Source of the DNA: Elusimicrobiota bacterium
Lineage (GTDB): Bacteria; Elusimicrobiota; Elusimicrobia; UBA1565
DNA: 14,144 nt
NCBI GenBank assembly: GCA_043819795.1
Contig: JBDREN010000184.1
Span: forward strand, 1 to 14,144
Direction of reading: 5' to 3'
Position 1 is the stretch's first letter, and each line of letters begins with the position of its first letter. Below are positions 2,880-14,144 of the stretch, piece by piece. The notes beneath the pieces are model-generated. The model was given only the letters and a program-made list of their open reading frames with translations. It was not told the DNA's origin and searched no databases. Both the position numbers and the translations under genes were made by a program.

Positions 2880-4025
2880 TCAGCGGGTGAGGGCCTTCTT
2901 TCGGGAGGGATCGGGCTCGCGCTCGAGCGCCGAGAGGATGAGGTCGCAGACTTCGCGGACGCAGCCCGCGCCGCCCGCCTTCCTGCAGACGTAGTGCGCG
3001 ATCCGCTTGGCCTCGATGCAGCCATTGGAGGGCGTTGCCGCGAACCCGACCTCCTTGAGCACCGAGAGGTCATTCACGTCGTCCCCCACGTAGGCGACCT
3101 GGTCCAGGGATATCCTCATCTTTCTGGCGATCCCGCGCAAGACCGGCAGCTTGTCCTTGACGCCCTGGTGGAGAAAGTCGACTAGCAGCTTCTGGGCGCG
3201 CCGCTCCACGATCCCGGTCTCCTCGGCGGTGATGAAGGCCGTTTTGAACCCCCGCTTGCGGAGGAGCTCCAGGCCCTTCCCGTCGCGCGTGTTGAACTTC
3301 TTCATCGCCTCCCCGGCGTCCGTGTAGTACATCCCGGCGTCGGTGAGGACCCCGTCCACGTCGAGGGCCAGCAGGCGTACGGGCTTTGGGGCGTTCTTGA
3401 GGCCGTCCACCAGGCGTTTCTCCATGAGCTTCTCCACGATGAAGAGGTCGAGCTCGGTGTCGATCTCGAAGTTGTAATCGCCGTCCAGCAGGTAGCGCTC
3501 GACGACGTCCCCGGTCCAGCGGCCGGCGAGAACGGTCCCGGCGTCCACCACGTAGACGTTCCCGTCGTCGTAGAAGAAGCCCTTGTAGTCCTGGCGCCTG
3601 AGGTTGTTGTGGCTCCCGTACTCCAGGAACTTGCAGTAATACCCCGTGGCCAGGCTGTTGGCCTTCTTCTTCCGGAAGCGCTTGAGGCAGGCGTCGACGA
3701 GCTCCCCGTCCCGGATGGGGGAGGTGGGCTGGAGCACGGCCAGGGTGTCGGCCCGGAAATGCTCCAGAACGTGCCGCAGGACCGAGAGCGTCGTGGTCTC
3801 GTCGCTGGCGAGGCGTTGGGGCCTCTTCAGCACCTTGGCGCCGAAGCTCCGCGCGACGCGGGCGATCTCGGCGTCCTCAGTGGAGACCACGAAGTCGTCG
3901 AGGAGGGCGGATTCGGCAGCCGCCTTGATTGACCAGTAAATGAGGGGCTTGCCGAGCACCTCCCGCAGGTTCTTCCTGGGGACGCCCTTGCTGCCCCCGC
4001 GCGCCGGAATCACTCCCAGAGTCAT
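2880..4025 (-). CDS. Bifunctional acylneuraminate (CMP-nonulosonate) cytidylyltransferase fused to a KdsC-like HAD phosphatase
   Basis: N-terminal NeuA motifs IPARGGSKGVPRKN, VLQPTSPIR and FEIDTELD. C-terminal HAD/KdsC motifs LALDVDGVLTD, FNTRDG, VAYVGDDVND and GGAGCVREVCDLIL, with the catalytic Asp residues intact. Confidence 0.9.
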   Translation of the reverse strand: MTLGVIPARGGSKGVPRKNLREVLGKPLIYWSIKAAAESALLDDFVVSTEDAEIARVARSFGAKVLKRPQRLASDETTTLSVLRHVLEHFRADTLAVLQPTSPIRDGELVDACLKRFRKKKANSLATGYYCKFLEYGSHNNLRRQDYKGFFYDDGNVYVVDAGTVLAGRWTGDVVERYLLDGDYNFEIDTELDLFIVEKLMEKRLVDGLKNAPKPVRLLALDVDGVLTDAGMYYTDAGEAMKKFNTRDGKGLELLRKRGFKTAFITAEETGIVERRAQKLLVDFLHQGVKDKLPVLRGIARKMRISLDQVAYVGDDVNDLSVLKEVGFAATPSNGCIEAKRIAHYVCRKAGGAGCVREVCDLILSALEREPDPSRKKALTR

Positions 4026-4030
4026 GGTGC

Positions 4031-5191
4031 TCAGGTGAGCTGCTCCAGGACGGCGACGGCGTTCTCCTTGGTGAACTCCACGGGGTTGTTGCCGAGCGCC
4101 GGCGTGAGGTCCAGGCCGCGTTCGGCCAGGAACGCGACGTCCTTTTTTTGGATGCCCCGCTTGCTGAGCCCTCCGTTGATGAGCGGCAGGGCGGGGAAGT
4201 CCTTGAACAGCGAGATGAACCGTGCGGCCTTCGTCTTGGCGTCGCCGCCTCGGTCCGCGCCCTCGATCACGTCGAGAAGCTCCGCGTACTGCGTGCAGCC
4301 CTTCTTGATGTTGATCTCGACTACCTTGGGGATGATCAGTCCGACGGCCACGCCGTGGGGCACCTCATGGTAGATGCCGAGCGGGTACGCCATGGAGTGG
4401 CAGGCGCCCGTATTGGAGTTGAAGATGGCGAAACCGGCGAGGCAGCTGCCGAGCAGCATGTTGCGCCGGGCCTCTAGGTCGCCGCCGTCGCGGAGGGCCT
4501 TGGGCAGGTTGTTGTAGGCCAGGGCGAACGCCTCCCGGGAGTACATCCGGGTGACGCGGTTCGCGCACCTCGCCGTGTAGGACTCGATGGCGTGGGCCAG
4601 CGCGTCCATGCCCGTGGACGCGGTGACATGGTCCGGCATGGAGAGGGTGAGCGGGGCGTGCAAGATAGCGTAGTCGGGGCACACCTGCGGCCCGCCCAAG
4701 GCTCTCTTAAACGAGGTCTCCTTGTTGACCAGCACGGCCCCCGGCGTGACCTCGCTTCCGGTCCCGGCCGTGGACGGGACCATGATCTTCGTGATGCCCG
4801 GGGGGAGCGGCTCGCCCGTGCCGTGGTACTTGGTCACGGAATCTTCGGTCTGGGCCATGACGGAAACCGCCTTGGCCAAATCCAGCGTGCTGCCGCCGCC
4901 GACCGCGACCAGGAGATCGACGTCCTTGCCCCGGAATATCCGGGCGACCTCGTCGACCCGGTCGGTGGTGGGCTCGATGGCCTCCGGCATCGTCAGAACG
5001 ATGGGGTACTTCGCCCGGAGGGCCTCGGCGAGGCCCTCCATCCTTTTGTCGCGGGACAGGGCCTTGTCGCAGATGACGCCGACTTTAGTGGAGCGCTCGG
5101 ACTCGGCCACCTTCAGGACGGAGGCGATGAGGTCGTCCGAGACGATCACCTCCGTCTTCGCCTGGAACTTGAATATCTCGTTATTCGCCAC
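4031..5191 (-). CDS. Iron-containing alcohol dehydrogenase (Fe-ADH family; KdnB-like by context)
   Basis: GGGSTLD, PSTAGTGSEVT, and metal ligands in DALAHAIESY, CHSMAY and VPHG. The GTG start overlaps the upstream gene's end by 11 nt. Confidence 0.9.
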   Translation of the reverse strand: MANNEIFKFQAKTEVIVSDDLIASVLKVAESERSTKVGVICDKALSRDKRMEGLAEALRAKYPIVLTMPEAIEPTTDRVDEVARIFRGKDVDLLVAVGGGSTLDLAKAVSVMAQTEDSVTKYHGTGEPLPPGITKIMVPSTAGTGSEVTPGAVLVNKETSFKRALGGPQVCPDYAILHAPLTLSMPDHVTASTGMDALAHAIESYTARCANRVTRMYSREAFALAYNNLPKALRDGGDLEARRNMLLGSCLAGFAIFNSNTGACHSMAYPLGIYHEVPHGVAVGLIIPKVVEINIKKGCTQYAELLDVIEGADRGGDAKTKAARFISLFKDFPALPLINGGLSKRGIQKKDVAFLAERGLDLTPALGNNPVEFTKENAVAVLEQLT

Positions 5192-6371
5192 GGAGCTTCT
5201 CGAGCGTCTTGAGCGTCGCGTCGGTCATGTGCCGGAACTGCTCCTCGCTCATCCACAAGTGGAAGGGGAACGAGAGCATGTTGTCGAAGAATGCGTCGGT
5301 TTCCGGGCAGTCGTGTCCGCCGAAGCCCATCTTCTTGAACAGCGGGTAGCGGTACAGGGGATAGTACTGGACGACGGTCTTGACCCGGTGCTCCCGGGCC
5401 ATGACGCGCATGAAGTCGTCGCGGGTCTTGCCCCGCCCCCCGCCGTCGTACCGCGCGGGCAGGAGGTGGTAGGCGTGCCCGCAATGCTCCGGGACCTTCT
5501 GGAACCGGAGCTCGGGATACTCCGCGAAGGCCTTCTTGAAGCGTTTCGCGCGCTCGACCCGGGCCGCGTTCATGCCGTCGAGGCGTTCCAGGAGCTTGGA
5601 GGCCAGCGCGCACTGGGCCTCCCCGAGGGAGAAGTTGTGGGGCCAGACGCCCGGGATGTCCAGGTCCACGTTCGCCATGGCCGGAAGCCAGTATTCCTCC
5701 CGGGGGCCTTCGAATCCGCGGATGCCGTTGTGCCTGAGTCCCGGCACGAGCTTCGCGTGCTCGGCCGAACGGACCGTCAGGATGCCGCCCTCGCCCAGGG
5801 TCGTCAGGCTTTTCTGGCAGTGAAAGCTGAAAGCCCCGAAGTCCGCGATGGAGCCGGCTTTCTTGCCCTTGTACTCGGCCCCGATGGCCTGGGCGCAGTC
5901 CTCCACGACGAGGCAGCCGTGGGCGCGAGCGAGCTCCATGATGGGGTCCATGTCCGCCATGAGGCCGTAGAGGTGGACGACGACGATGACCTTGGTCCGG
6001 GGGCCGATGTTTTTCCCGATCGACGCCGGGGAGACCACCAGGGTGTCGGGGTCGATGTCGGCCCAGACGATCTTGGCTCCGGTGCGGGCGAAGGGGATGG
6101 CCGTCGCGCAGAAAGTATGCGCGGGGATGATGACCTCGTCGCCGGGCCCCAGGCGGGTCAGGATCGCGGCGAGGTCCAGGGCGTTGGTGCAGTTGGCGAC
6201 CGCGAAGGCGTGCTCGACGCCGTTGTAGCGGCAGAAGTCCTCCTCGAGCTTTTTGAGGCGGGGGCCTTGGGTGAGGGGGTCGCCCGTGCGCATGACTTCG
6301 GCCACGGTCGCGATCTCCTCCTCCGTGTAGTCGAAGGCCCTGCCGCTCCACGGGACGATGAACTCGTCCAC
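5181..6371 (-). CDS. DegT/DnrJ/EryC1/StrS PLP-dependent sugar aminotransferase (KdnA-like by context), 396 aa
   Basis: Probable start is GTG at 6371 (MDEFIVPWSG...), 2 nt after the NeuB stop, with AAGAAAGG upstream. Motifs LGPGDEVIIPAHTF, VVHLYG, VEDCAQA and the PLP lysine in SFHCQKSLTTLGEGG. Confidence 0.9.
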   Translation of the reverse strand: MDEFIVPWSGRAFDYTEEEIATVAEVMRTGDPLTQGPRLKKLEEDFCRYNGVEHAFAVANCTNALDLAAILTRLGPGDEVIIPAHTFCATAIPFARTGAKIVWADIDPDTLVVSPASIGKNIGPRTKVIVVVHLYGLMADMDPIMELARAHGCLVVEDCAQAIGAEYKGKKAGSIADFGAFSFHCQKSLTTLGEGGILTVRSAEHAKLVPGLRHNGIRGFEGPREEYWLPAMANVDLDIPGVWPHNFSLGEAQCALASKLLERLDGMNAARVERAKRFKKAFAEYPELRFQKVPEHCGHAYHLLPARYDGGGRGKTRDDFMRVMAREHRVKTVVQYYPLYRYPLFKKMGFGGHDCPETDAFFDNMLSFPFHLWMSEEQFRHMTDATLKTLEKLRGE

Positions 6372-6373
6372 GG

Positions 6374-7276
6374 CTACGTGCCTTTCTTTCCTGCCAGAGG
6401 GGCGCCTATTGACGGTCTGTTCCATTTGAGTTTGTTCCGCTGGGGGATTTCGATGTCCAGGATGTCCTTGGGCTTTTCCTGCGCGGCGGCGGCCACGCAC
6501 TTGATGTCGCGGATCAGGCGGCGCAGGCCGTCGGGCTCCAGCGAGGCGGCGTGGTCGGTCCCCTTCCAGGTCCGGTTGAGGGTGTAGTGCCGCTCGATCC
6601 AAGCGGCGCCCAAGGTGAAGGCCGCCATGTCGATGGCGATCCCGTTGTGATGCCCGGAGAAGCCCACGGCCTTGATCATGCCGCCGTAGGTTTTCCGCAG
6701 GCGCGGGATCTCGAGCAGATAGCTGTCCTCGTCGGGCACGGGATAGCCCGAGGTGCAGGCGTAGAGGACCGCGTCCTTGGCGCGGCCCTTCCCGGCGAGG
6801 AAGGAGACGAGCTCCTCTTCCTCCTTGCGGGTGGTCATCCCGAGGGAGACGTGGATCTCGCCGCCGAACTCTCCGCAGACGTAGCCGAGCATCTCGGGGT
6901 TCGTGTTGCACGCGGAGGGGAACTTGATCAGCTCCGGCTTGAGCGAAACGATCTCCCGGGTGGAGGTCATGTCCCAGACGGAGCAGGAATAGACGACGCC
7001 CATGGACTCGCAGTACTCCTTGAGATCCCGGTGCTGGTCGAGGGTGAGCTCCAGGGTCTCCCGGTGCTCGCCGTAGGTGCTCCCGTAGGAATGGAACGGC
7101 TCCGGGTGGCAGGTGCCGTACTCCTCCGGGCTGAGGCTTTCGCGGGGGTTGCGCTTCTGGAACTTCACGTGCCCGGCTTTGCAGAAGATCTTGGCGACCT
7201 CGATCATCTCCCGGGCGATGCTCATCTCGCCTTTGTGGTTGCACCCTATCTCGGCGATCACGTTTGCCGGCTGCAT
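6374..7276 (-). CDS. NeuB-family N-acylneuraminate(-9-phosphate)/nonulosonate synthase, short form lacking the C-terminal SAF/antifreeze-like domain
   Basis: VIAEIGCNHKG, VKFQKRN, ACTSGYP, GFSGHH, IERHYTLNRTWKGTDHAASLEP. At 300 aa it ends soon after the TIM barrel. GGGAGGAG RBS. Confidence 0.9.
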   Translation of the reverse strand: MQPANVIAEIGCNHKGEMSIAREMIEVAKIFCKAGHVKFQKRNPRESLSPEEYGTCHPEPFHSYGSTYGEHRETLELTLDQHRDLKEYCESMGVVYSCSVWDMTSTREIVSLKPELIKFPSACNTNPEMLGYVCGEFGGEIHVSLGMTTRKEEEELVSFLAGKGRAKDAVLYACTSGYPVPDEDSYLLEIPRLRKTYGGMIKAVGFSGHHNGIAIDMAAFTLGAAWIERHYTLNRTWKGTDHAASLEPDGLRRLIRDIKCVAAAAQEKPKDILDIEIPQRNKLKWNRPSIGAPLAGKKGT

Positions 7277-7277
7277 G

Positions 7278-8174
7278 CTAGCTCCTCCCGCCTCCCTTGC
7301 GAAGTACGGCCCATAGAGTGTCCGCGTGGCCGGCCCGGACGAGGGCCTCGGCGTAGGCCTTGTTGAGTGACCCGGGGAACACGCGGCCGTAGAACCCCGT
7401 CCCGCCCGGCTTGCCCGTCAGCAGCCACCGGATGTGGTTCGACAAGTCGTAGCGCTGGACCCCGGCGATGTCCGCCTCGGCTCCCGCGGCGCGGGCCGCG
7501 CGCTCCAGGGTGCTCTTGGAGAAGTACCAAAGATGCGCGTTCTGGTAATAGAACGCCGCATAGGCGGGGAGGCGGTACAGCGTCAGGAGGGCGTCCTCGA
7601 CGTCGGGCACCTCCACGGCGATCCGGCCGCCGGGCTTCAGGCGCGCCAGGAGCGACTCGATGAACTCGACCGGGCGCAGCACGTGCTCGAGCACATGAAA
7701 AAGGACGATGAGGTCGAAGCCGCGGTCCTCGACGTCCTCCAGCTTCTCGCGGATCTCCAGCCCCAGCTTCTCATTGGCCCAACGACGGTAGGCGACGGTC
7801 GGCTCGATCCCCGTGACGCGCCCGACCAGGGGGCGCACCGAGTGAAGGAACGCCCCCGAGCCCGAGCCCAGCTCGAGCAGGGAGGTCCCGGGGTTCAAAA
7901 GTCCCCCGAGCCGGCCCACGCGCTCCCGCGCCTCCGGCAGATCCTCATTGTGCTTCCGCTCGGGGCTCACGCCGGGGTCGTACTCGGTGCGGTAGGTCTC
8001 GGCGTAGAACTTCTTGAGGTCCTCCTCGGTCGGCAGGGGATCGAGGCGGACAAGCCCGCAGTCCTGACAGCGGCGGACCTCCAGGCGGGGTTCGTGACGG
8101 ACTCCTTTCCGCACCGGGATGGAAGACTCCTCGCCGCAGAGGACGCAGCGGATGCTCGTGGACACGTTGTTCAC
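7278..8174 (-). CDS. Class I SAM-dependent methyltransferase with N-terminal zinc ribbon
   Basis: CVLC...CQDC, SAM motif LLELGSGSG, FHVLEH and LKPGG. Start is GTG 8174 or GTG 8165, because the TTG at 8213 is the promoter -35 box. Stop lies 1 nt before the NeuB ATG. Confidence 0.85.
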   Translation of the reverse strand: MNNVSTSIRCVLCGEESSIPVRKGVRHEPRLEVRRCQDCGLVRLDPLPTEEDLKKFYAETYRTEYDPGVSPERKHNEDLPEARERVGRLGGLLNPGTSLLELGSGSGAFLHSVRPLVGRVTGIEPTVAYRRWANEKLGLEIREKLEDVEDRGFDLIVLFHVLEHVLRPVEFIESLLARLKPGGRIAVEVPDVEDALLTLYRLPAYAAFYYQNAHLWYFSKSTLERAARAAGAEADIAGVQRYDLSNHIRWLLTGKPGGTGFYGRVFPGSLNKAYAEALVRAGHADTLWAVLRKGGGRS

Positions 8175-8183
8175 GGTATCAGC

Positions 8184-8213
8184 ATTATAGGCATTTGGCG
8201 AGATCAGGGTCAA
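8184..8213 (-). promoter_or_regulatory. Sigma70 promoter of the five-gene sugar operon
   Basis: Minus strand TTGACC (8213-8208), 18 nt spacer, perfect TATAAT (8189-8184). Confidence 0.75.
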
Positions 8214-8363
8214 CGCGGACCCGACGGGCTATGCCGGTTTCCGCGCCCTTTTCTTCTGCTTGAATCCTTGATAATTCGAAGGGATAAGCGCCACAAGACG
8301 AGCTTGCGGCTCTGGATTAACGGGACGAAGGAACCGGGAGCCGCGACATTCGTACGTGTGGGT

Positions 8364-9095
8364 ATGGCCAAGCCCGAGCAGCTGTGGTTGGACTTGGCGC
8401 GCCCGGGCCCTTCCCCGCATCGCGCTCGCGCGCGGGAACGGAACGGCCGGGTCGCGATCGAGGCCGACTATTCGGAGGACGTGTCGGGCATCCCCGCCAT
8501 GCTCGGCCGCGCCGGAGCCTGGGTGCGCCGCTGCCGCCTGCCGGCGGGGGACTATCTTGTGGGGCACCGGTTCCTGGTGGAGCGCAAGGCCGCCGGGGAC
8601 TTCGCGCGGTCGCTTTTCGACGGCAGGCTGCTTGCGCAGCTCCGCTACTTGAAGCGGTCGGTGGTCCCCTGCCTGCTCGTGGTCGAGGGCTGCCCGGGAT
8701 ACTACGAGCGGTTCTGGCCGCCCAAGCTCCGTCCCGTCCTTCTCTCCGCCGCGCTGGACTTCCGGGTGCCCGTGCTGTTCACCCGGCGCCCCGAGGGCAC
8801 CGTCGAGCTCCTGCTCGCGCTGGGCAGGCGCTGCCTGACGTTCCCGGCCGCGGAGTTCTTCGTCCCCGCTCCCCGCAGGAAGCGGCCGGACAAGCGGGAG
8901 CGCGCGTTCGTGGAGTTCTGGCGCGCCCTGGAGTCCATCCCGCTGGTGGGTCCGGCGGCGGCCATGCGTCTGGCGGGCCGCTTCGGAAGCCTGGAGTCGC
9001 TGCGCCGGGCCTCGGTCGCGGAGTTGAGCCGGGTGCGCGGCGTCGGTCCTTTGCGGGCGGGGAACATCCGCGCCGCCCTGCGGGAGAAGTCTTGA
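8364..9095 (+). CDS. ERCC4/XPF-family structure-specific endonuclease with C-terminal tandem helix-hairpin-helix, 243 aa
   Basis: LPAGDYLV...VERKAAGDF (GD-n-ERKxxxD), DGRLLAQL, LLVVEG, then ESIPLVGPAAA...FGSLESLRRASVAELSRVRGVGPLRA. The ATG 8364 start has a weak RBS; the upstream part of ORF 7434-9095 is antisense to the methyltransferase. Confidence 0.85.
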   Translation: MAKPEQLWLDLARPGPSPHRARARERNGRVAIEADYSEDVSGIPAMLGRAGAWVRRCRLPAGDYLVGHRFLVERKAAGDFARSLFDGRLLAQLRYLKRSVVPCLLVVEGCPGYYERFWPPKLRPVLLSAALDFRVPVLFTRRPEGTVELLLALGRRCLTFPAAEFFVPAPRRKRPDKRERAFVEFWRALESIPLVGPAAAMRLAGRFGSLESLRRASVAELSRVRGVGPLRAGNIRAALREKS

Positions 9096-9132: not shown

Positions 9133-9150
9133 CCGCTTCGTTAGGAATCC

Positions 9151-9301
9151 GGCGTCAGGCTGAAACTTATGAGACTTTTAGAATGGGCAGGCGTGGCATG
9201 AGGCGGTCATGCGTTCGTATCGAAAGCCCTCCGGCCCTGCCGCCGGCACGATGCGGATCGGCCCGCGGCGCCATAAGTTTCATAAGTTTCAGCCTGACGC
9301 C
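9151..9301. repeat. 151-bp element bounded by terminal inverted repeats (MITE-like or iteron-like)
   Basis: GGCGTCAGGCTGAAACTTATGA at 9151-9172 and its exact reverse complement at 9280-9301; 26 of 27 match if extended. The arms carry tandem GAAACTTAT-like units. No target-site duplication seen. Confidence 0.65.
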
Positions 9302-9324
9302 AAAAGCCTCTCTTGTTCCCTTCT

Positions 9325-10155
9325 CTACTGCGGCGCCGAGACACAGCCCCCATCAATACATACGAGGTTTCCCGGACATCCGTAGGGGCCGTCGACACCA
9401 CAAGTGCCGTCGCCATAGCAACGGACATTAAAGTATCTGAATTGATACCCGACGCCCCCGATATAACGGGTAGCCGAACCGAGGCATGTGTCGGACATGG
9501 TGGTGCCGTCCCAGGCAGTGCAGGTTTGCTTCACAATATCGTAACCACCGGTGGTAGGGGTTACCGTGCAGTTGTCCGACCCTTCCGATGTGTCCAGCGG
9601 ATCGGTACAGCCTGGGTCCGCCGGGTGGTCGGTCTGGCCGTCTCCGTCGTTGTCCTCCCCGTCCTCGCACTGGCTCTTCTCGATCGGGGCGCACAGGCTC
9701 AAAACCGGATCCCCTTCCGCCCCCGTAACGGCCCAATTGGCGCAAATAGCATCAATCAGGAGATTCAAGGTGGCGTCGTCAAGCAGGCCAGTCGGTCCCA
9801 TGGGGCCCTGGATACCGGGGTCGCCCTTATCGCCTTGGATCCCCTGGTCGCCCTGCGGACCTTGGGGTCCTGGCGTCAATTCTATGTTCTCGATCATCCC
9901 GCGGAGTTCATCGGCAGTTGCCTGAGCAGAATCGGCAGCGGCCTGGGCGGCAGCAGCATCACCCACAGCACCGTTGGCAGTGGCCTGAGCGGCATCGGCA
10001 GCTGCCTGAGCATCGGCAGCATCACTCACAACATCGGATGTCTGTCCTTGGAGTTGCTGGAAGGGCCGGCCTTGCGCGGATTGGGCTTGGGCTATTCCGA
10101 CCAAAGCGAAAGCAAAAAAGCCGGCGGCAATGATCGTCAGGTATTCTTTTTTCAT
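9325..10155 (-). CDS. Secreted protein with Ala-rich coiled coil, short collagen repeat, Ca-binding DxDxDG Cys motif and Cys-rich C-terminus, 276 aa
   Basis: ATG 10155 with AAGGAG RBS. Signal peptide MKKEYLTIIAAGFFAFALVGIAQA; duplicated DAADAQAAADAAQATA-like unit; about 10 Gly-X-Y triplets (GPQGPQGDQGIQGDKGDPGIQGPMGPTGLL); CEDGEDNDGDGQTDHPADPGC; ends CPGNLVCIDGGCVSAPQ. Confidence 0.82.
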   Translation of the reverse strand: MKKEYLTIIAAGFFAFALVGIAQAQSAQGRPFQQLQGQTSDVVSDAADAQAAADAAQATANGAVGDAAAAQAAADSAQATADELRGMIENIELTPGPQGPQGDQGIQGDKGDPGIQGPMGPTGLLDDATLNLLIDAICANWAVTGAEGDPVLSLCAPIEKSQCEDGEDNDGDGQTDHPADPGCTDPLDTSEGSDNCTVTPTTGGYDIVKQTCTAWDGTTMSDTCLGSATRYIGGVGYQFRYFNVRCYGDGTCGVDGPYGCPGNLVCIDGGCVSAPQ

Positions 10156-10460: not shown

Positions 10461-11246
10461 CTATACCCCCGAAATCACGGACCCGATATGCTTACCGCCT
10501 TGTAAGCGGAGGCCCGCCAGGTACCACAGGTACTCGACGTTGCCCTTGGGGCCTTTGATCGGGCATGCCATGAGTCCCTTTTCCTCGATTTCGAGCGTCC
10601 GCGCCGCCAGCCTGAGGAGGCCGATCGCCTCCTGGCGGTGCGCCTCTTGGCGGACCACGCCCTTGGGGGCTTTCTTGGGCCCAAGCTCGAACTGAGGCTT
10701 GATGAGGGCGATCACCTCGAAGGGGCGCCTCAGACAGGCCAGGACCGGGGCCAAGACCTTGGCCAGCGAGATGAACGAGACGTCTATGACGGCCAGGTCC
10801 AGGGAGCCGGCGTCCTCCCCGAACAGGGCGGGCGCTAGGTCCCTGGCGTGGGTCCGCTCCATGCCGACGACGCGGGGGTCGGCGCGCAGGCTCGCGTCGA
10901 GCTGGCCGCGGCCCACGTCCACGGCGTAGACCTTCCTCGCGCCTCGCTGGAGCAGACAGTCGGTGAAGCCCCCGGTGGAAGCCCCGACATCGAGGGCGGT
11001 CCGGCCTTCCACGAGCACCGGGAACTCGTCGAGAGCGGCGGCCAGCTTGAGGCCCCCGCGGGAGACGTAGGGAACGGCGTCCGGGACCACCTCCACCCCG
11101 ATGTCCGGAGCTACCCGCATGCCCGCCTTGGGACGGGGATGGCCCTCCACCCGCACCTTCCCGGCCATCAGGGCGGCCTGGGCCTTCGCGCGCGTCGGGA
11201 AAAGACCGCGGTCCACGAGCAGCACGTCGAGCCTTTGCCTCTCCAT
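10461..11246 (-). CDS. tlyA: TlyA family rRNA 2'-O-methyltransferase (S4 + FtsJ domains), 261 aa
   Basis: RLDVLLVDRGL (S4), YVSRGGLKL, LDVGASTGGFTDCLLQRGA, AVDVG, DVSFISL, LIKPQFE and GPKGNVEY. Start is ATG 11246, because ATG 11267 overlaps the -10 box. Confidence 0.93.
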   Translation of the reverse strand: MERQRLDVLLVDRGLFPTRAKAQAALMAGKVRVEGHPRPKAGMRVAPDIGVEVVPDAVPYVSRGGLKLAAALDEFPVLVEGRTALDVGASTGGFTDCLLQRGARKVYAVDVGRGQLDASLRADPRVVGMERTHARDLAPALFGEDAGSLDLAVIDVSFISLAKVLAPVLACLRRPFEVIALIKPQFELGPKKAPKGVVRQEAHRQEAIGLLRLAARTLEIEEKGLMACPIKGPKGNVEYLWYLAGLRLQGGKHIGSVISGV

Positions 11247-11265
11247 CGGGAGCGTATCCAGGGGC

Positions 11266-11295
11266 ATTATGGCCGCAAACGCGGCGGCTTGTCAA
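11266..11295 (-). promoter_or_regulatory. Sigma70 promoter of tlyA
   Basis: Minus strand TTGACA (11295-11290), 18 nt spacer, CATAAT (11271-11266). Confidence 0.7.
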
Positions 11296-11325: not shown

Positions 11326-11354
11326 TTGACACTGGAAGCGCCGCCCCTTAAACT
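11326..11354 (+). promoter_or_regulatory. Divergent sigma70 promoter for the TPR/membrane-protein operon
   Basis: TTGACA (11326-11331), 17 nt spacer, TAAACT (11349-11354). Confidence 0.72.
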
Positions 11355-11412
11355 AATCATGCTTGAGAGGGCTGCCTGATCGCCGCCGCGGGCAGCCGGG
11401 AAAAGGTGTTGA

Positions 11413-12786
11413 ACTTCAAAGCTTTCCGGTATATGGGCCTCGGGCCTGGCCGTCTGCATCGCGGCGGCCGCCGCGCACGGCCAGCACGGCCGCGAAGGTT
11501 CGGCGGAAGGCCGCTTCCCTCAGGCCGCCGGCCCGGATGCGGACCGCTCCCCATCCGCCACGAACCGGGAGTTTCTGAAAGAGCTGGGGAGGCTTGAACG
11601 AAGATCGAGGGGCGTTCTTCCAGCCGAGCGGGCGGGGCTCGAAAAAACGCGACGGAGCCTGAGCAAGCTTGGCCCGCGTCGGCGTTACGAGTTCCAGCGC
11701 CGTTATCTGGACGCGCTATCCGCGGCCGGACGGATGCGCGAAGCGCGGCGGCAAGGCGACGGCGAGCGCGCGGCGCGGCACGCCCGGGAGCTGGGGAGCC
11801 ACTTCGGCTTCCTCGGGGAGAACTACGGCCTCGTGGGGGGCGGTCTGGTCGCGCTCGAGGTGCGGGAAAGATACGAGGGCCCGGGAGGAGCGGGCGAGGT
11901 GGAGCAGGCCGACGTGGACTACGGCTTCGCGGCCGTCCAGGCTTTCCCGAAGCACGCGGGGGTCTGGCGCGCTCTGGGCGGGATGCTCCGCCGAGCGGGG
12001 AGGCATGAGACGGCGCTGGAGGTGTACCAGGTCGCCGCCGAGCTGGATCCGGCGAGCCTCGAGGCCTACGCGGGCATGGCCGACTCGCGCTATAAGCTGG
12101 GGGACTACGACGGCGCGGTGGAGGACGCCAAGCGGGCGCTCGAGATAGACCCGCGCGACGCCGCGGCCAAGACCCTGCTCAAGCTGGCCGCCAGGCACGG
12201 CGGGACGCCGGGACAGTCCGCCGGCACTCCCGGACAGGCGGCGGCCCGAAGACCGGCGCGGACCGCCGTTCCCGCCGGCCAGGCGCCGGCCGAAGACGCG
12301 ACCCCGGAGCGCGGCCTCCATGTGGGCGCGCCGCCGCCGCCCGGGACTGTCGGGGAGCAGTCGTCGCAGCAGAAACCTGAAGAGGAAAAGCAGGGGATTT
12401 TGAGCCGGACTTTTTATTGGCTGAGGGGCAAGATCAACAGCGCCGAAGAGTTCGGGCTGAAGAAAGTGGATGGACATCTGGACATAGAGCCAGGGGAGCG
12501 ACAAACGGCTTTGCGGGGTGCCGCTCTTGGTGCGAAATACGGCGTGGGCGCGGGGGCTGTGGGGGGCGCCTTCCTCGTCGGGACTTCGTTTTGCGCTCCC
12601 TCGGTCGTCAATCCGGCTCTCTATGTGCCGTGCATCGGTGGAGGGGCGGCCGGAGGCGCGGCCGTGGGCGCACCTCTTGGAGCATATGTGGGAGCCTTTG
12701 CGGGCGTGAGTCTCAAGCGGATTCGGATGTGGCTCGAAGAGGTGCGTGAGGATGTCTTCGGGGGACGGCAAGTCGAAGGAGACTGA
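11413..12786 (+). CDS. TPR-repeat protein with Pro/Ala/Gln linker and C-terminal Gly/Ala-rich hydrophobic (glycine-zipper) domain; start uncertain
   Basis: TPRs: VWRALGGMLRRAGRHETALEVYQVAAELDP and AYAGMADSRYKLGDYDGAVEDAKRALEIDP. The tail has many small-xxx-small motifs. The frame is open from 11413 and encodes a signal-peptide-like stretch, but the first ATG/GTG/TTG is at 11734. Confidence 0.7.
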   Translation, partial: TSKLSGIWASGLAVCIAAAAAHGQHGREGSAEGRFPQAAGPDADRSPSATNREFLKELGRLERRSRGVLPAERAGLEKTRRSLSKLGPRRRYEFQRRYLDALSAAGRMREARRQGDGERAARHARELGSHFGFLGENYGLVGGGLVALEVRERYEGPGGAGEVEQADVDYGFAAVQAFPKHAGVWRALGGMLRRAGRHETALEVYQVAAELDPASLEAYAGMADSRYKLGDYDGAVEDAKRALEIDPRDAAAKTLLKLAARHGGTPGQSAGTPGQAAARRPARTAVPAGQAPAEDATPERGLHVGAPPPPGTVGEQSSQQKPEEEKQGILSRTFYWLRGKINSAEEFGLKKVDGHLDIEPGERQTALRGAALGAKYGVGAGAVGGAFLVGTSFCAPSVVNPALYVPCIGGGAAGGAAVGAPLGAYVGAFAGVSLKRIRMWLEEVREDVFGGRQVEGD

Positions 12787-12787
12787 T

Positions 12788-13264
12788 ATGGAGCAGCGTC
12801 ATGAAGCCGCTATCGCGGCGCCACTTAAGATGCATTCCCTCATCCTGCTCGCGGGGGGAGCTTTGACGCTTGTTCCATTCATGGAATTGTCCATGGGCTG
12901 GTTGTTGGTCCAGGTATTCGGCGTTAAGCTCGGGTGGGGCATTACTTTGGCGTATTATACGTTCGTCACCGGGCAGTTGCTCATCTTCTTGCCGCTCCTG
13001 ACGATACCGCTGTGTTCGCTGTGGGTATATTACCGTGGCGGGGACATTCGGGCCGGACGGAGGTTCTTGGGTCGGGGTTTCCTCCGTTATTTCCCAGCGT
13101 TATTCGGGTTGGGACTACAGATGTATATTGTGGGCATCCATGGGATATACGTTGCCCCCGCCATATTCGGCTCGCTGCTGGTGGGCTACGCGATTTGGCT
13201 ATTGCGTCGAGACCGTGCCGCGATAGACGCCGTCATCGGGGAAGAGAAACCCCATGAGGCATAA
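12788..13264 (+). CDS. Small multi-pass membrane protein, paralog 1 (candidate immunity protein), 158 aa
   Basis: AAGGAGA RBS; ATG 1 nt after the upstream TGA; about 4 hydrophobic segments; motif FLPLLTIPLCSLW...RGFLRYFPALFG...WLLRRDRAA. Confidence 0.8.
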   Translation: MEQRHEAAIAAPLKMHSLILLAGGALTLVPFMELSMGWLLVQVFGVKLGWGITLAYYTFVTGQLLIFLPLLTIPLCSLWVYYRGGDIRAGRRFLGRGFLRYFPALFGLGLQMYIVGIHGIYVAPAIFGSLLVGYAIWLLRRDRAAIDAVIGEEKPHEA

Positions 13265-13316
13265 GATCGTCGTTCTTCTCCCTCTTGCGGTCTTGGCTAA
13301 ATTCCTCGGAGACTGA
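13254..13316 (+). pseudogene. 20-codon mini-ORF MRHKIVVLLPLAVLAKFLGD, probable collapsed remnant of a secreted-protein gene
   Basis: ATG 13254 overlaps the end of paralog 1 after GGGGAAGAG. Signal-peptide-like N-terminus. Ends GGA GAC TGA-N-ATG, the same junction as the TPR gene at 12778-12790. Confidence 0.5.
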
Positions 13317-13317
13317 A

Positions 13318-13764
13318 ATGGATGCCAAGGGCGAGATTTGCGTTCGCAAGACGATGGTTCTTCTTTCATGCATCATCGCCGCTGTCGGAATCCTGACTCT
13401 CAATGCTTATGTTGACCTCATATTGAAGGCGATTTTCAAAGCGGATGTTGAGTGGGCCGCGGCGTGGTCCGCGAGAGCATGGTTCATATCACAGATCATC
13501 ATCTTCCTGCCGATCATGACGGTGCCCGTCTCTGCCTTGTGGGCTTATCGCCGCACTGGTAGTCGCGGCGCGGGCTGGCAGGTCGTTATTCGTGGATTCT
13601 TGCGCTACACACCGGTCCTGGCGGGAGACCTTCTGCAATTGTTTGCCATGCGTTCAAAGCATTCTCTCTTTTCGCCCGGCGTTTTCGGGATCCTGACGAT
13701 TATCTACGCGGGGTGGCTTATCAGAAAGGATCGTGCCGCAGCGGGGGGACATGCAAATCCCTGA
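13318..13764 (+). CDS. Small multi-pass membrane protein, paralog 2, 148 aa
   Basis: GGAGA RBS; ATG 13318; motif FLPIMTVPVSALW...RGFLRYTPVLAG...WLIRKDRAA aligns with paralog 1. Confidence 0.8.
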   Translation: MDAKGEICVRKTMVLLSCIIAAVGILTLNAYVDLILKAIFKADVEWAAAWSARAWFISQIIIFLPIMTVPVSALWAYRRTGSRGAGWQVVIRGFLRYTPVLAGDLLQLFAMRSKHSLFSPGVFGILTIIYAGWLIRKDRAAAGGHANP

Positions 13765-14144
13765 GCAGACGGATCAAGGCAGAGTCACGAGGCTTCACTC
13801 CATCCTGTTCTTGTCGGCGGGCATAGGATTGGCGATGCCGTTCGTCTTGATGGTGGCCTTGGGCCTGCTGGGGCGCGTGGTTGCCTTCGACCTCGGGCCG
13901 GCGATGACCTTGCTTGCCGGCGTGTGGCTGGTGGGCGAAGGGCTCTTGGGGCTTCCGTTGCTGACGATACCGGTGTGCGCCTTGTGGGTCTCGCATCGCA
14001 GTCAAAGCCGGGAATCTAGCCCCCAAATCGTATGGCGACTTTCTAAGAGGTATGCGCCCGTGTTGGTGGGTTTTGTCGTCCAGTTTCCCTTTCTTGCCCG
14101 AAAGGCGCCCATGTTTATGGCCTGCGCGGTCTTGGGCGTTCTGG
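13751..14144 (+). CDS. Small multi-pass membrane protein, paralog 3, 3' truncated by the window edge (absent from the ORF track)
   Basis: GGGGGA RBS; ATG 13751 overlaps paralog 2 by 14 nt. Manual translation MQIPEQTDQGRVTRLHSILFLSAGIGLAMPF...GLPLLTIPVCALW...KRYAPVLVGFVVQ... is open to the window end. Confidence 0.8.
   Translation, partial: MQIPEQTDQGRVTRLHSILFLSAGIGLAMPFVLMVALGLLGRVVAFDLGPAMTLLAGVWLVGEGLLGLPLLTIPVCALWVSHRSQSRESSPQIVWRLSKRYAPVLVGFVVQFPFLARKAPMFMACAVLGVL

Follow-up and report, generated by a model that had tools for sequence, protein, structure and literature searches.

A tetratricopeptide-repeat carrier with a glycine-zipper tip and adjacent membrane proteins: a probable toxin-immunity locus in an Elusimicrobiota bacterium

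Introduction

What does a tetratricopeptide repeat (TPR) protein with a signal-like leader and a Gly/Ala hairpin at its C-terminus do directly upstream of an array of small membrane-protein genes? The question is raised by one end of a 14,144-nucleotide stretch of DNA from an Elusimicrobiota bacterium (GenBank assembly GCA_043819795.1, contig JBDREN010000184.1), referred to here as the window, which is the entire contig C184 of a 4.99 Mb genome in 241 contigs (90% complete). A first-pass annotation, made from the sequence alone, had proposed a polymorphic toxin system in which the hairpin is the toxin and the membrane proteins are its antidotes. Comparison with related loci indicates that the window locus very probably belongs to a toxin-immunity system. 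The specific reading favored here, with a probability of roughly 0.64, is that of an exported TPR carrier whose glycine hairpin depolarizes the inner membrane of rival bacteria and is blocked by four-helix membrane proteins. The locus is likely part of an order-wide and apparently undescribed polymorphic toxin system built on signal-peptide/TPR carriers.

Architecture of the carrier and its membrane partners

A single open frame on the forward strand (11413-12786, 457 codons) encodes in succession a signal-like stretch, a helical region, a TPR module (Pfam TPR_2, E 4.9e-12), a linker and a Gly/Ala tail with a Cys pair, confirming both the layout and the tail sequence reported in the first-pass annotation. 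The absence of Rhs, CdiA, LXG, MafB or PAAR motifs noted there also holds, since Pfam and NCBIfam scans of the carrier gave TPR families only, with no PAAR, VgrG, Rhs, LXG or MafB domain and neither a two-partner secretion (TPS) domain nor haemagglutinin repeats; a search with the structure model of the carrier likewise returned matches to TPR structures only. In the AlphaFold model, built from two sequences (mean predicted local distance difference test score, pLDDT, 66), the helical/TPR body is confident and the linker disordered, and the tail forms two long helices, of residues 360-392 and 401-449, whose turn carries Cys394 and Cys407. The Gly/Ala-zipper hairpin spans about 12490-12759, leaving 25 residues between the last hydrophobic segment and the C-terminal end. 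Overlapping [GAS]xxxGxxx[GAS] motifs, counted without a shuffle control, number seven in the window tail and four to seven in four homologs.

The membrane genes follow closely, with a gap of 1 nt between carrier and gene 1, a gap of 53 nt between genes 1 and 2, and an overlap of 14 nt between genes 2 and 3. Of the earlier description of at least three coupled paralogs of about 150 residues with four transmembrane segments, the three paralogs (pairwise identities 34, 30 and 28%) and the four helices of gene 1 stand, the AlphaFold model of gene 1 having four long helices (pLDDT 85), but genes 1 and 2 are not coupled. A crude hydropathy scan found two to four segments per family member, and three in gene 1. 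Across the family the membrane proteins are 18-43% identical to one another, and gene 3 is closest to the gene of another locus in the same genome, C226 (43% identity, tree support 99/99). By position only, gene 1 is likely the cognate immunity gene and genes 2 and 3 orphans; 15 of the 29 inner branches of the membrane-protein tree lack resolution, and the tree does not settle duplication order or cognate and orphan status.

The hairpin and membrane pair outside the source genome

An exhaustive profile search of 1.84 billion proteins returned 32 members of the membrane family, six of them from the source genome (the alignment and scan set, also n = 32, comprises 31 search matches and the protein of locus C105). 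One outside member, from a source named Elusimicrobiota bacterium, matches a gene of G419, a genome that shares its order, but not its family, with the window genome. Among 100 other genomes of the order, the membrane profile gave convincing matches in G419 only, at two loci, and the family is therefore rare; one metagenome locus, L175, was found by a single-protein scan. At both G419 loci and at L175, a TPR carrier with a Cys-pair Gly hairpin lies directly 5' of the membrane gene, and two membrane genes are present at two of these three loci (G419 locus B and L175). Frameshifts affect one carrier and one membrane gene in G419. A tail profile made from the source genome only gave E values of 1.6e-8, 1.8e-6 and 8.6e-9 for the three tails from elsewhere, with E 0.47 for the best unrelated frame in the source genome. 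Altogether, the hairpin lies directly 5' of the membrane gene at seven of the eight loci for which DNA was seen, and is terminal in all seven copies, from three sources.

Other searches added no further locus. Gene 1 alone as query found nothing in 60 relatives; a seven-sequence membrane profile found nothing in 400 other genomes of the phylum, and source-genome proteins only in a word-indexed protein search. The 32-sequence profile gave two weak matches in 400 phylum genomes, neither of them counted: the one in G041 is a fragment of 39 codons, interrupted by a stop and preceded by an unrelated gene, and the one in G199 lies inside a 939-residue frame. Among longer proteins, the tail profile found only three carriers, all already known, and leads from the ESM Atlas all scored below 0.9.

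Two of the family's members and loci have features of their own. Between the membrane paralogs of L175 lies a 94-residue gene (L175:1465-1746) that ends in a Gly-Gly motif and a short hydrophobic tail; it has no Pfam match and presumably resembles a Nif11-type or bacteriocin leader peptide. The 293-residue protein P0032 contains two stretches matched by the membrane-family profile and is possibly a fused double immunity protein.

Sister carriers with recognized toxins and antidotes

The G419 carriers have an N-terminal domain different from that of the window carrier, and belong to a larger group with interchangeable tips. A profile of two G419 carrier sequences gave 36 matches, spread over 15 of the 38 genomes searched in a single genus; 34 further G419-type carriers were retrieved, and C-termini were scanned in the 28 frames of at least 400 residues. 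A leave-out profile of 29 other G419-type carriers still scores the two G419 hairpin carriers (E 1.4e-37 and 2.7e-26), which are therefore true members of this group. The C-termini vary between loci, and six of the 28 tips match toxin families above the Pfam cut-off: colicin M (one), CdiA RNase A (two), Ntox10 (two) and the colicin E3-type Cytotoxic family (one). Others match DUF6883 (two), DUF4258 below threshold (one) or a coiled coil weakly (one). Among the 26 genes scanned 3' of these carriers are two of Imm27, both after Ntox10, and two of DUF4926, both after DUF6883, with no Pfam match in 16. Imm27 is tabulated as the primary immunity protein of Ntox10 (PMC3482391; this and the other papers cited by PMC number are drawn on for their available parts). 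One contig (L110, G023:C77:1000-12500) carries four TPR carriers, each with its own small coupled gene and all with different tips (DUF4258-like, colicin M, CdiA RNase A and one without a name).

A second carrier subfamily, which includes carriers on contigs C1, C128 and C80 of the source genome, is present in 27 of 101 genomes of the order, as judged by a profile seeded with these three carriers and two from the taxonomic family of the source genome. Forty regions were retrieved, chosen mostly for short frames, from which 36 tips and 28 partners were scanned. Pfam matches were found for four of the 36 tips (barnase-type RNase in two, Ntox17 and DUF6883), and barstar lies 3' of both barnase-type RNase tips. 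Interchangeable C-termini on a conserved carrier are thus found in both the G419-type and the C1/C128/C80-type carriers, and the hairpin is one of the G419-type tips. The hairpin loci have the small gene coupled directly downstream, together with extra copies, in arrays of at least three (window), two (G419 locus B) and two (L175). The first-pass proposal of a polymorphic toxin-immunity system, with its expectation of a conserved N-terminus followed by variable C-termini, is well supported by gene context in the sister carriers and holds for the wider carrier family; the window's own N-terminus was found only with hairpin tails or truncated.

Two kinds of tip in the second subfamily are of separate interest. 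The C80 carrier of the source genome (L054:2287-3839, G000:C80) has a tip with an HF...E...DxxSN motif, followed by a gene for a membrane-anchored BamE-like protein (Pfam BamE, E 0.039). By its motif, this tip may resemble the Lipocone toxins. BamE-like immunity proteins have been reported for Lipocone toxins (PMC12419801). An HExxH peptidase-like tip with a membrane-anchored partner of about 190 residues occurs at L055 and L056 (G000:C1 and C128), L156, L159-L162, L164, L168 and L172; this subgroup spans several genera, and its tip is better conserved than other tips.

Cassette copies in the source genome and the state of the window carrier

Five cassette loci in the genome (the window C184, C90, C224, C105 and C226) have the same promoter region, for which nhmmer gave E <=1e-30 at the five training loci and 2e-4 at the next match. 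C90 has an intact carrier with a non-ATG start and a Cys-pair hairpin; in C224 the carrier is frameshifted within the TPR and the hairpin is Cys-free; each is followed by one membrane gene. At C105 the promoter and one membrane gene are retained, with only a remnant of the tail, and at C226 about 100 carrier codons are left, their stop overlapping the start of the membrane gene. In total, the carrier frame is intact at one of five loci (C90) and the membrane frames are open at all five. In the window, the N-terminal part of the carrier has a GC content of 0.72, the tail 0.62 and the membrane genes 0.55-0.60; at each of the five loci, the values for tip and membrane genes (0.48-0.62) lie below the genome value of 0.668. 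Polymorphic toxin loci usually show decaying carriers, persisting partners and low-GC tips.

A supposed second paralog at C90 was rejected, being a 145-bp, 99% identical copy of part of C90's own gene 1. The window contains at 9146-9308 an element of about 163 bp with long terminal inverted repeats and three further copies elsewhere, of 96-98% identity; the C90 cassette is flanked by two copies, beside the 145-bp duplicate and an IS110 transposase, and the element may have moved the C90 carrier cassette.

These copies bear on the alternative that survives best, namely that the window carrier is a pseudogene and the locus a promoter-driven immunity array directed against hairpin toxins of other strains or of C90. 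The first ATG, GTG or TTG in the carrier frame occurs only at 11734, and the conserved start of the paralogs falls at 11406-11411, in a different frame from the carrier body, so that the carrier frame is broken within its first ~10 codons. One sequencing run of DNA contained a small part of the region, without the frame break, and no RNA run was listed as containing it. Frameshifts or deletions are seen in three further carriers of the genome, each next to an open membrane frame. Against this, the remaining 457 codons are open and all parts of the carrier are present, which fits a recent break or a metagenome-type assembly error. The alternative is given an even chance, and is compatible with a depolarizing hairpin and membrane immunity proteins.

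Tip classes and the location of antidotes

A second alternative is that the hairpin serves only as a membrane-entry or anchor segment, the enzymatic tip being lost or separate, with the membrane proteins as chaperone or docking partners. It draws on the related carriers, of which 63 with automatically picked partners were compared: 43 have a hydrophobic Gly/Ala-rich segment followed by 98-236 further residues and a soluble partner; 14, including the colicin M carrier, lack such a segment and are paired with a protein anchored at its N-terminus; and six fit neither. Tip type and antidote location agree in 57 of the 63, which is a pattern and not a probability because the carriers are kin, some of the tips are related and some picks are wrong. 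From the sequences, the first class reads as cytoplasmic toxins with an entry segment and soluble immunity, and the second as periplasmic toxins with neither. The window tip would fit a third class, with no room for an enzyme and with an integral membrane partner, its hydrophobic segment having been scored at a lower threshold (1.3, versus 1.5 for the others). The glycine zipper of Tde1, which serves translocation (PMC10240207), also favors an entry role. Against it, tail profiles fail to match the entry segments of related carriers (no match at E 0.1; best E 6), the hairpin is terminal in every copy, and it has a dedicated, fast-diverging partner that is also present in extra copies. An entry or anchor role is judged unlikely.

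Direct interaction of tail and gene 1 product was considered by modeling, as the first-pass annotation had suggested for the tail-paralog complexes. The gene 1 complex scored 0.39, compared with 0.00 for the best of three controls, with a contact agreement of at least 0% and a partner pLDDT of at least 58. The model therefore beats its controls, but one of the three runs (0.00, 0.40 and 0.39) failed to reproduce it, and it points only faintly to a complex. The mark for this score is reached by 116 of 157 solved and two of 215 mismatched pairs, and scores of 0.60 or lower at the mark belong to only 18 of the 157 solved pairs and to both mismatches.

For export, the genome contains five secretin and 13 T2SSE/pilus ATPase matches above cut-off, with no link to a cassette in the DNA that was read. 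No TssC/VipB match was found in the 90%-complete genome.

Kinship with TPR receptor kinases

The window N-terminal type was found in this genome only, where three copies end in hairpins (two with the Cys pair, one free of Cys) and a fourth is a stub; it shares with the G419-type carriers only the TPR module (hhalign probability 97%, 87 columns). In each of the 16 other genomes of its family, the window carrier is best matched through the TPR region, in some cases with an extension into the helical domain, and among the matches listed the long frames are mostly TPR-transmembrane-kinase proteins or their ectodomains. Genes with a signal-helical-TPR-transmembrane-Ser/Thr kinase layout are numerous across the family (G000 C25, C30, C102, C126 and C214, and L020-L047); their N-terminal helical domains are highly variable, and their first TPR module is the same as that of the toxin carriers.

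This kinship is the ground for a third alternative, a non-toxic recognition or signaling pair in which a surface or secreted ligand, kin to the receptor-kinase ectodomains, is matched to a four-helix receptor. The membrane proteins, though, have no signaling domain or family match, the carriers decay and the partners persist, and the slot of the hairpin is occupied in sister carriers by colicin M, RNases and Ntox10, making such a pair improbable. Finally, the idea that the small genes belong to some ordinary family of transporters, enzymes or phage-defence proteins, beside an incidental TPR neighbor, is very improbable: four-helix bundles are common and one of the 32 family members has a marginal MerC match (E 0.006), but no Pfam family above cut-off and no NCBIfam or PADLOC family was matched, Foldseek of gene 1 gave no match at E 0.001, a VIA fold search gave generic helical bundles (best Z 9.8), and the linkage to a hairpin carrier directly upstream largely refutes it.

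Points weighing against a depolarizing hairpin

Several observations count against the reading of the window locus as a carrier-borne, membrane-depolarizing toxin with membrane immunity. Some concern the tip itself: the window tail has no Pfam match, sub-threshold glycine-zipper matches being found solely in the C105 remnant; its hydropathy is modest (peak 1.5); its helices are modeled with low confidence (pLDDT 52-70); and glycine zippers can serve translocation and not killing, as in Tde1 (PMC10240207). Others concern the carrier, whose broken start may reflect a pseudogene or an assembly error, and which may be dead, leaving the locus as an immunity operon; at C226, moreover, the membrane gene is preceded by a carrier stub without a hairpin. 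The window pre-TPR domain matched only itself among 1054 candidates and nothing in the searched genome contigs, and its N-terminus is seen with no alternative tip in this genome. The G419-type profile matches the window carrier at E 1.7e-5 over the TPR, and a receptor kinase of the same genome better, at 1.8e-8; because its TPR brings it no nearer to the toxin carriers than that kinase stands, the window carrier is assigned through its shared tip, partner and layout.

The comparative evidence is also limited. No Pfam match was found for 18 of the 28 G419-type tips and 32 of the 36 second-subfamily tips. The 63 carriers compared for tip class are kin, about ten of the 14 anchored cases being related peptidase-like tips, and partners were picked automatically from -40 to +90 nt, a few picks differing from the reading by eye.

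Comparison with known systems

The general class, signal-peptide polymorphic toxins with possible TPRs and lineage-specific N-termini, is already in print (PMC3482391), with SitA and the Gram-positive antibacterial proteins as analogues. Sec- and type II secretion system (T2SS)-exported polymorphic toxins with lineage-specific N-termini include MafB-N, Microscilla-N and APD1/2, and TPR is listed among the repeats of such toxins (PMC3482391). The carriers described here resemble them in their putative signal peptide, conserved N-terminus, variable toxin C-terminus, adjacent immunity gene and tandem immunity paralogs, but match none of those N-terminal domains in Pfam or NCBIfam. Elusimicrobia are mentioned twice in the available part of that paper, in the ranges of Ntox36 and barstar, with no TPR carrier family. 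No Elusimicrobiota TPR-carrier family or hairpin/immunity pair was found among the literature matches listed, although the supplements of PMC3482391 could list members.

Among membrane-acting toxins, the ionophores of contact-dependent inhibition (CDI; Ntox25/EC93 group) have a C-terminal tip with a putative glycine zipper, and their CdiI proteins are very hydrophobic and highly polymorphic (about 30% identity, comparable to the 18-43% found here; PMC11630599). The CDI tips, however, are five-helix bundles carried on CdiA filaments and paired with two-helix CdiI proteins of 72-100 residues (PMC11630599), whereas the tip described here is a two-helix hairpin on a TPR carrier of about 450 residues, with four-helix partners of about 150 residues. 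Caulobacter CdzC/CdzD with CdzI, and class II bacteriocins, share the GxxxGxxxG zippers and small multi-pass membrane immunity proteins (PMC5380434). In the Cdz system these are two peptides of 84-86 residues with an adjacent type I exporter and a three-helix CdzI (PMC5380434); here, the zipper tips one large signal-peptide protein with no adjacent transporter, the upstream neighbor being TlyA on the opposite strand and the contig ending downstream.

Myxobacterial SitA proteins resemble the carriers in their lineage-specific escort families, swappable C-terminal toxins, coupled immunity and many loci per genome, and differ in being lipoproteins that deliver nucleases through TraAB outer-membrane exchange (PMC8546572); window-type leaders have no conserved lipobox Cys, and the escort is helical/TPR. 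The secreted polymorphic antibacterial proteins (ABPs) of Gram-positive bacteria also act without an injection machine, but need a cognate co-exported serine protease (PMC12582261), which is absent from the cassettes, and their hosts belong to another phylum. The Elusimicrobial TPR receptor Ser/Thr kinases, also close in layout, share the putative signal peptide, variable helical domain, first TPR module and linker, but in them further TPRs, a single transmembrane helix and a kinase domain follow. By the features tested, the locus is outside the Cdz, CDI, type VI secretion system (T6SS)/Rhs/LXG and MafB families.

Feature map and neighboring genes

The features of the cassette are collected in Table 1. 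The 53-nt spacer between genes 1 and 2 is possibly, on slender sequence grounds, the remnant of a displaced carrier end.

Table 1. Features of the carrier cassette in the window, in order of position.
Feature	Position	Strand	Remarks
Promoter, sigma-70-type, TTGACA-17-TAAACT	11326..11354	+	Conserved 5' of each of the five cassettes of this genome
Purine-rich ribosome-binding-like stretch and GTG/TTG at the paralog-conserved start position	11398..11412	+	Out of frame with the carrier body
Signal-peptide-like hydrophobic stretch	11413..11481	+	Putative, from alignment with paralog leaders
Lineage-specific helical N-terminal domain	11551..11877	+	Model helices, open-frame residues 47-155
TPR module	11905..12198	+	Common to other carrier subfamilies and TPR receptor Ser/Thr kinases
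Pro/Ala/Gly-rich linker, low complexity	12199..12384	+	Predicted disordered, pLDDT <50
Predicted toxin tip	12385..12786	+	Two short helices, then Gly/Ala-zipper helical hairpin with Cys pair at the turn
Membrane gene 1, 158 aa, four helices	12788..13264	+	Coupled to carrier stop; likely cognate immunity
Spacer, 53 nt	13265..13317	+	Final nine bases are those of the carrier's last codons
Membrane gene 2, 148 aa	13318..13764	+	Likely orphan immunity
Membrane gene 3, 131 aa seen, cut at contig end	13751..14144	+	Likely orphan immunity

Elsewhere in the window, the forward strand encodes an S9 oligopeptidase and two receiver-like genes, the first confirmed by Pfam (1-2808), and a protein with an ERCC4/XPF nuclease domain and helix-hairpin-helix repeats (8229-9095), a nuclease family better known from archaea and eukaryotes. 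The reverse strand encodes a sugar-modification cluster (2880-8213) comprising a methyltransferase, a NeuB synthase, a DegT aminotransferase, an Fe-alcohol-dehydrogenase-like protein and a cytidylyltransferase-HAD fusion, and likely dedicated to nonulosonic-acid-type biosynthesis. Also on the reverse strand, a lower-GC patch (9325-10155) encodes a protein with a signal peptide, an alanine-zipper stretch, a collagen-like repeat and a C-terminus rich in Cys and Asp, and the gene of a TlyA-type S4/FtsJ methyltransferase (10461-11267) points away from the cassette promoter.

Proposed mechanism and implications

In the proposed mechanism, the carrier would be exported via Sec by its signal peptide and would cross the outer membrane, possibly through one of the genome's secretin systems. 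The helical/TPR part may bind a target or act as a chaperone, and the disordered linker would let the tip be released or reach the rival membrane. There, hairpins would oligomerize into an ion-leaking pore, the Cys pair stapling the turn. The product of gene 1 would neutralize the hairpin inside the membrane, and those of genes 2 and 3 would cover hairpin variants made by competitors.

A broader picture would have dozens of carriers across the order deliver swappable toxins to three compartments without an injection machine, the carriers reusing the ectodomain module of the numerous TPR receptor kinases, toxins and kinases sharing a cell-recognition code, and the hairpin and its antidote forming a new family of pore-former and immunity protein; as a whole, this is speculative and rather doubtful. 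Under such a shared code, the toxins would dock at kinase-ligand sites, or the kinases would sense incoming toxins.

The approximately 70 carrier-partner pairs read here represent an apparently undescribed family of antibacterial-toxin carriers in a mostly uncultured phylum, and since most of their tips and partners have no Pfam family, they are a source of new toxin and immunity domains. They also pose a puzzle, namely how a signal-peptide protein of about 450 residues gets to a rival's periplasm, membrane or cytoplasm when no delivery machine is known for it. If the reading favored here is true, the window pair is a new membrane-toxin/immunity family, and the module common to the carriers and the receptor kinases suggests a link between signaling and antagonism in these bacteria.

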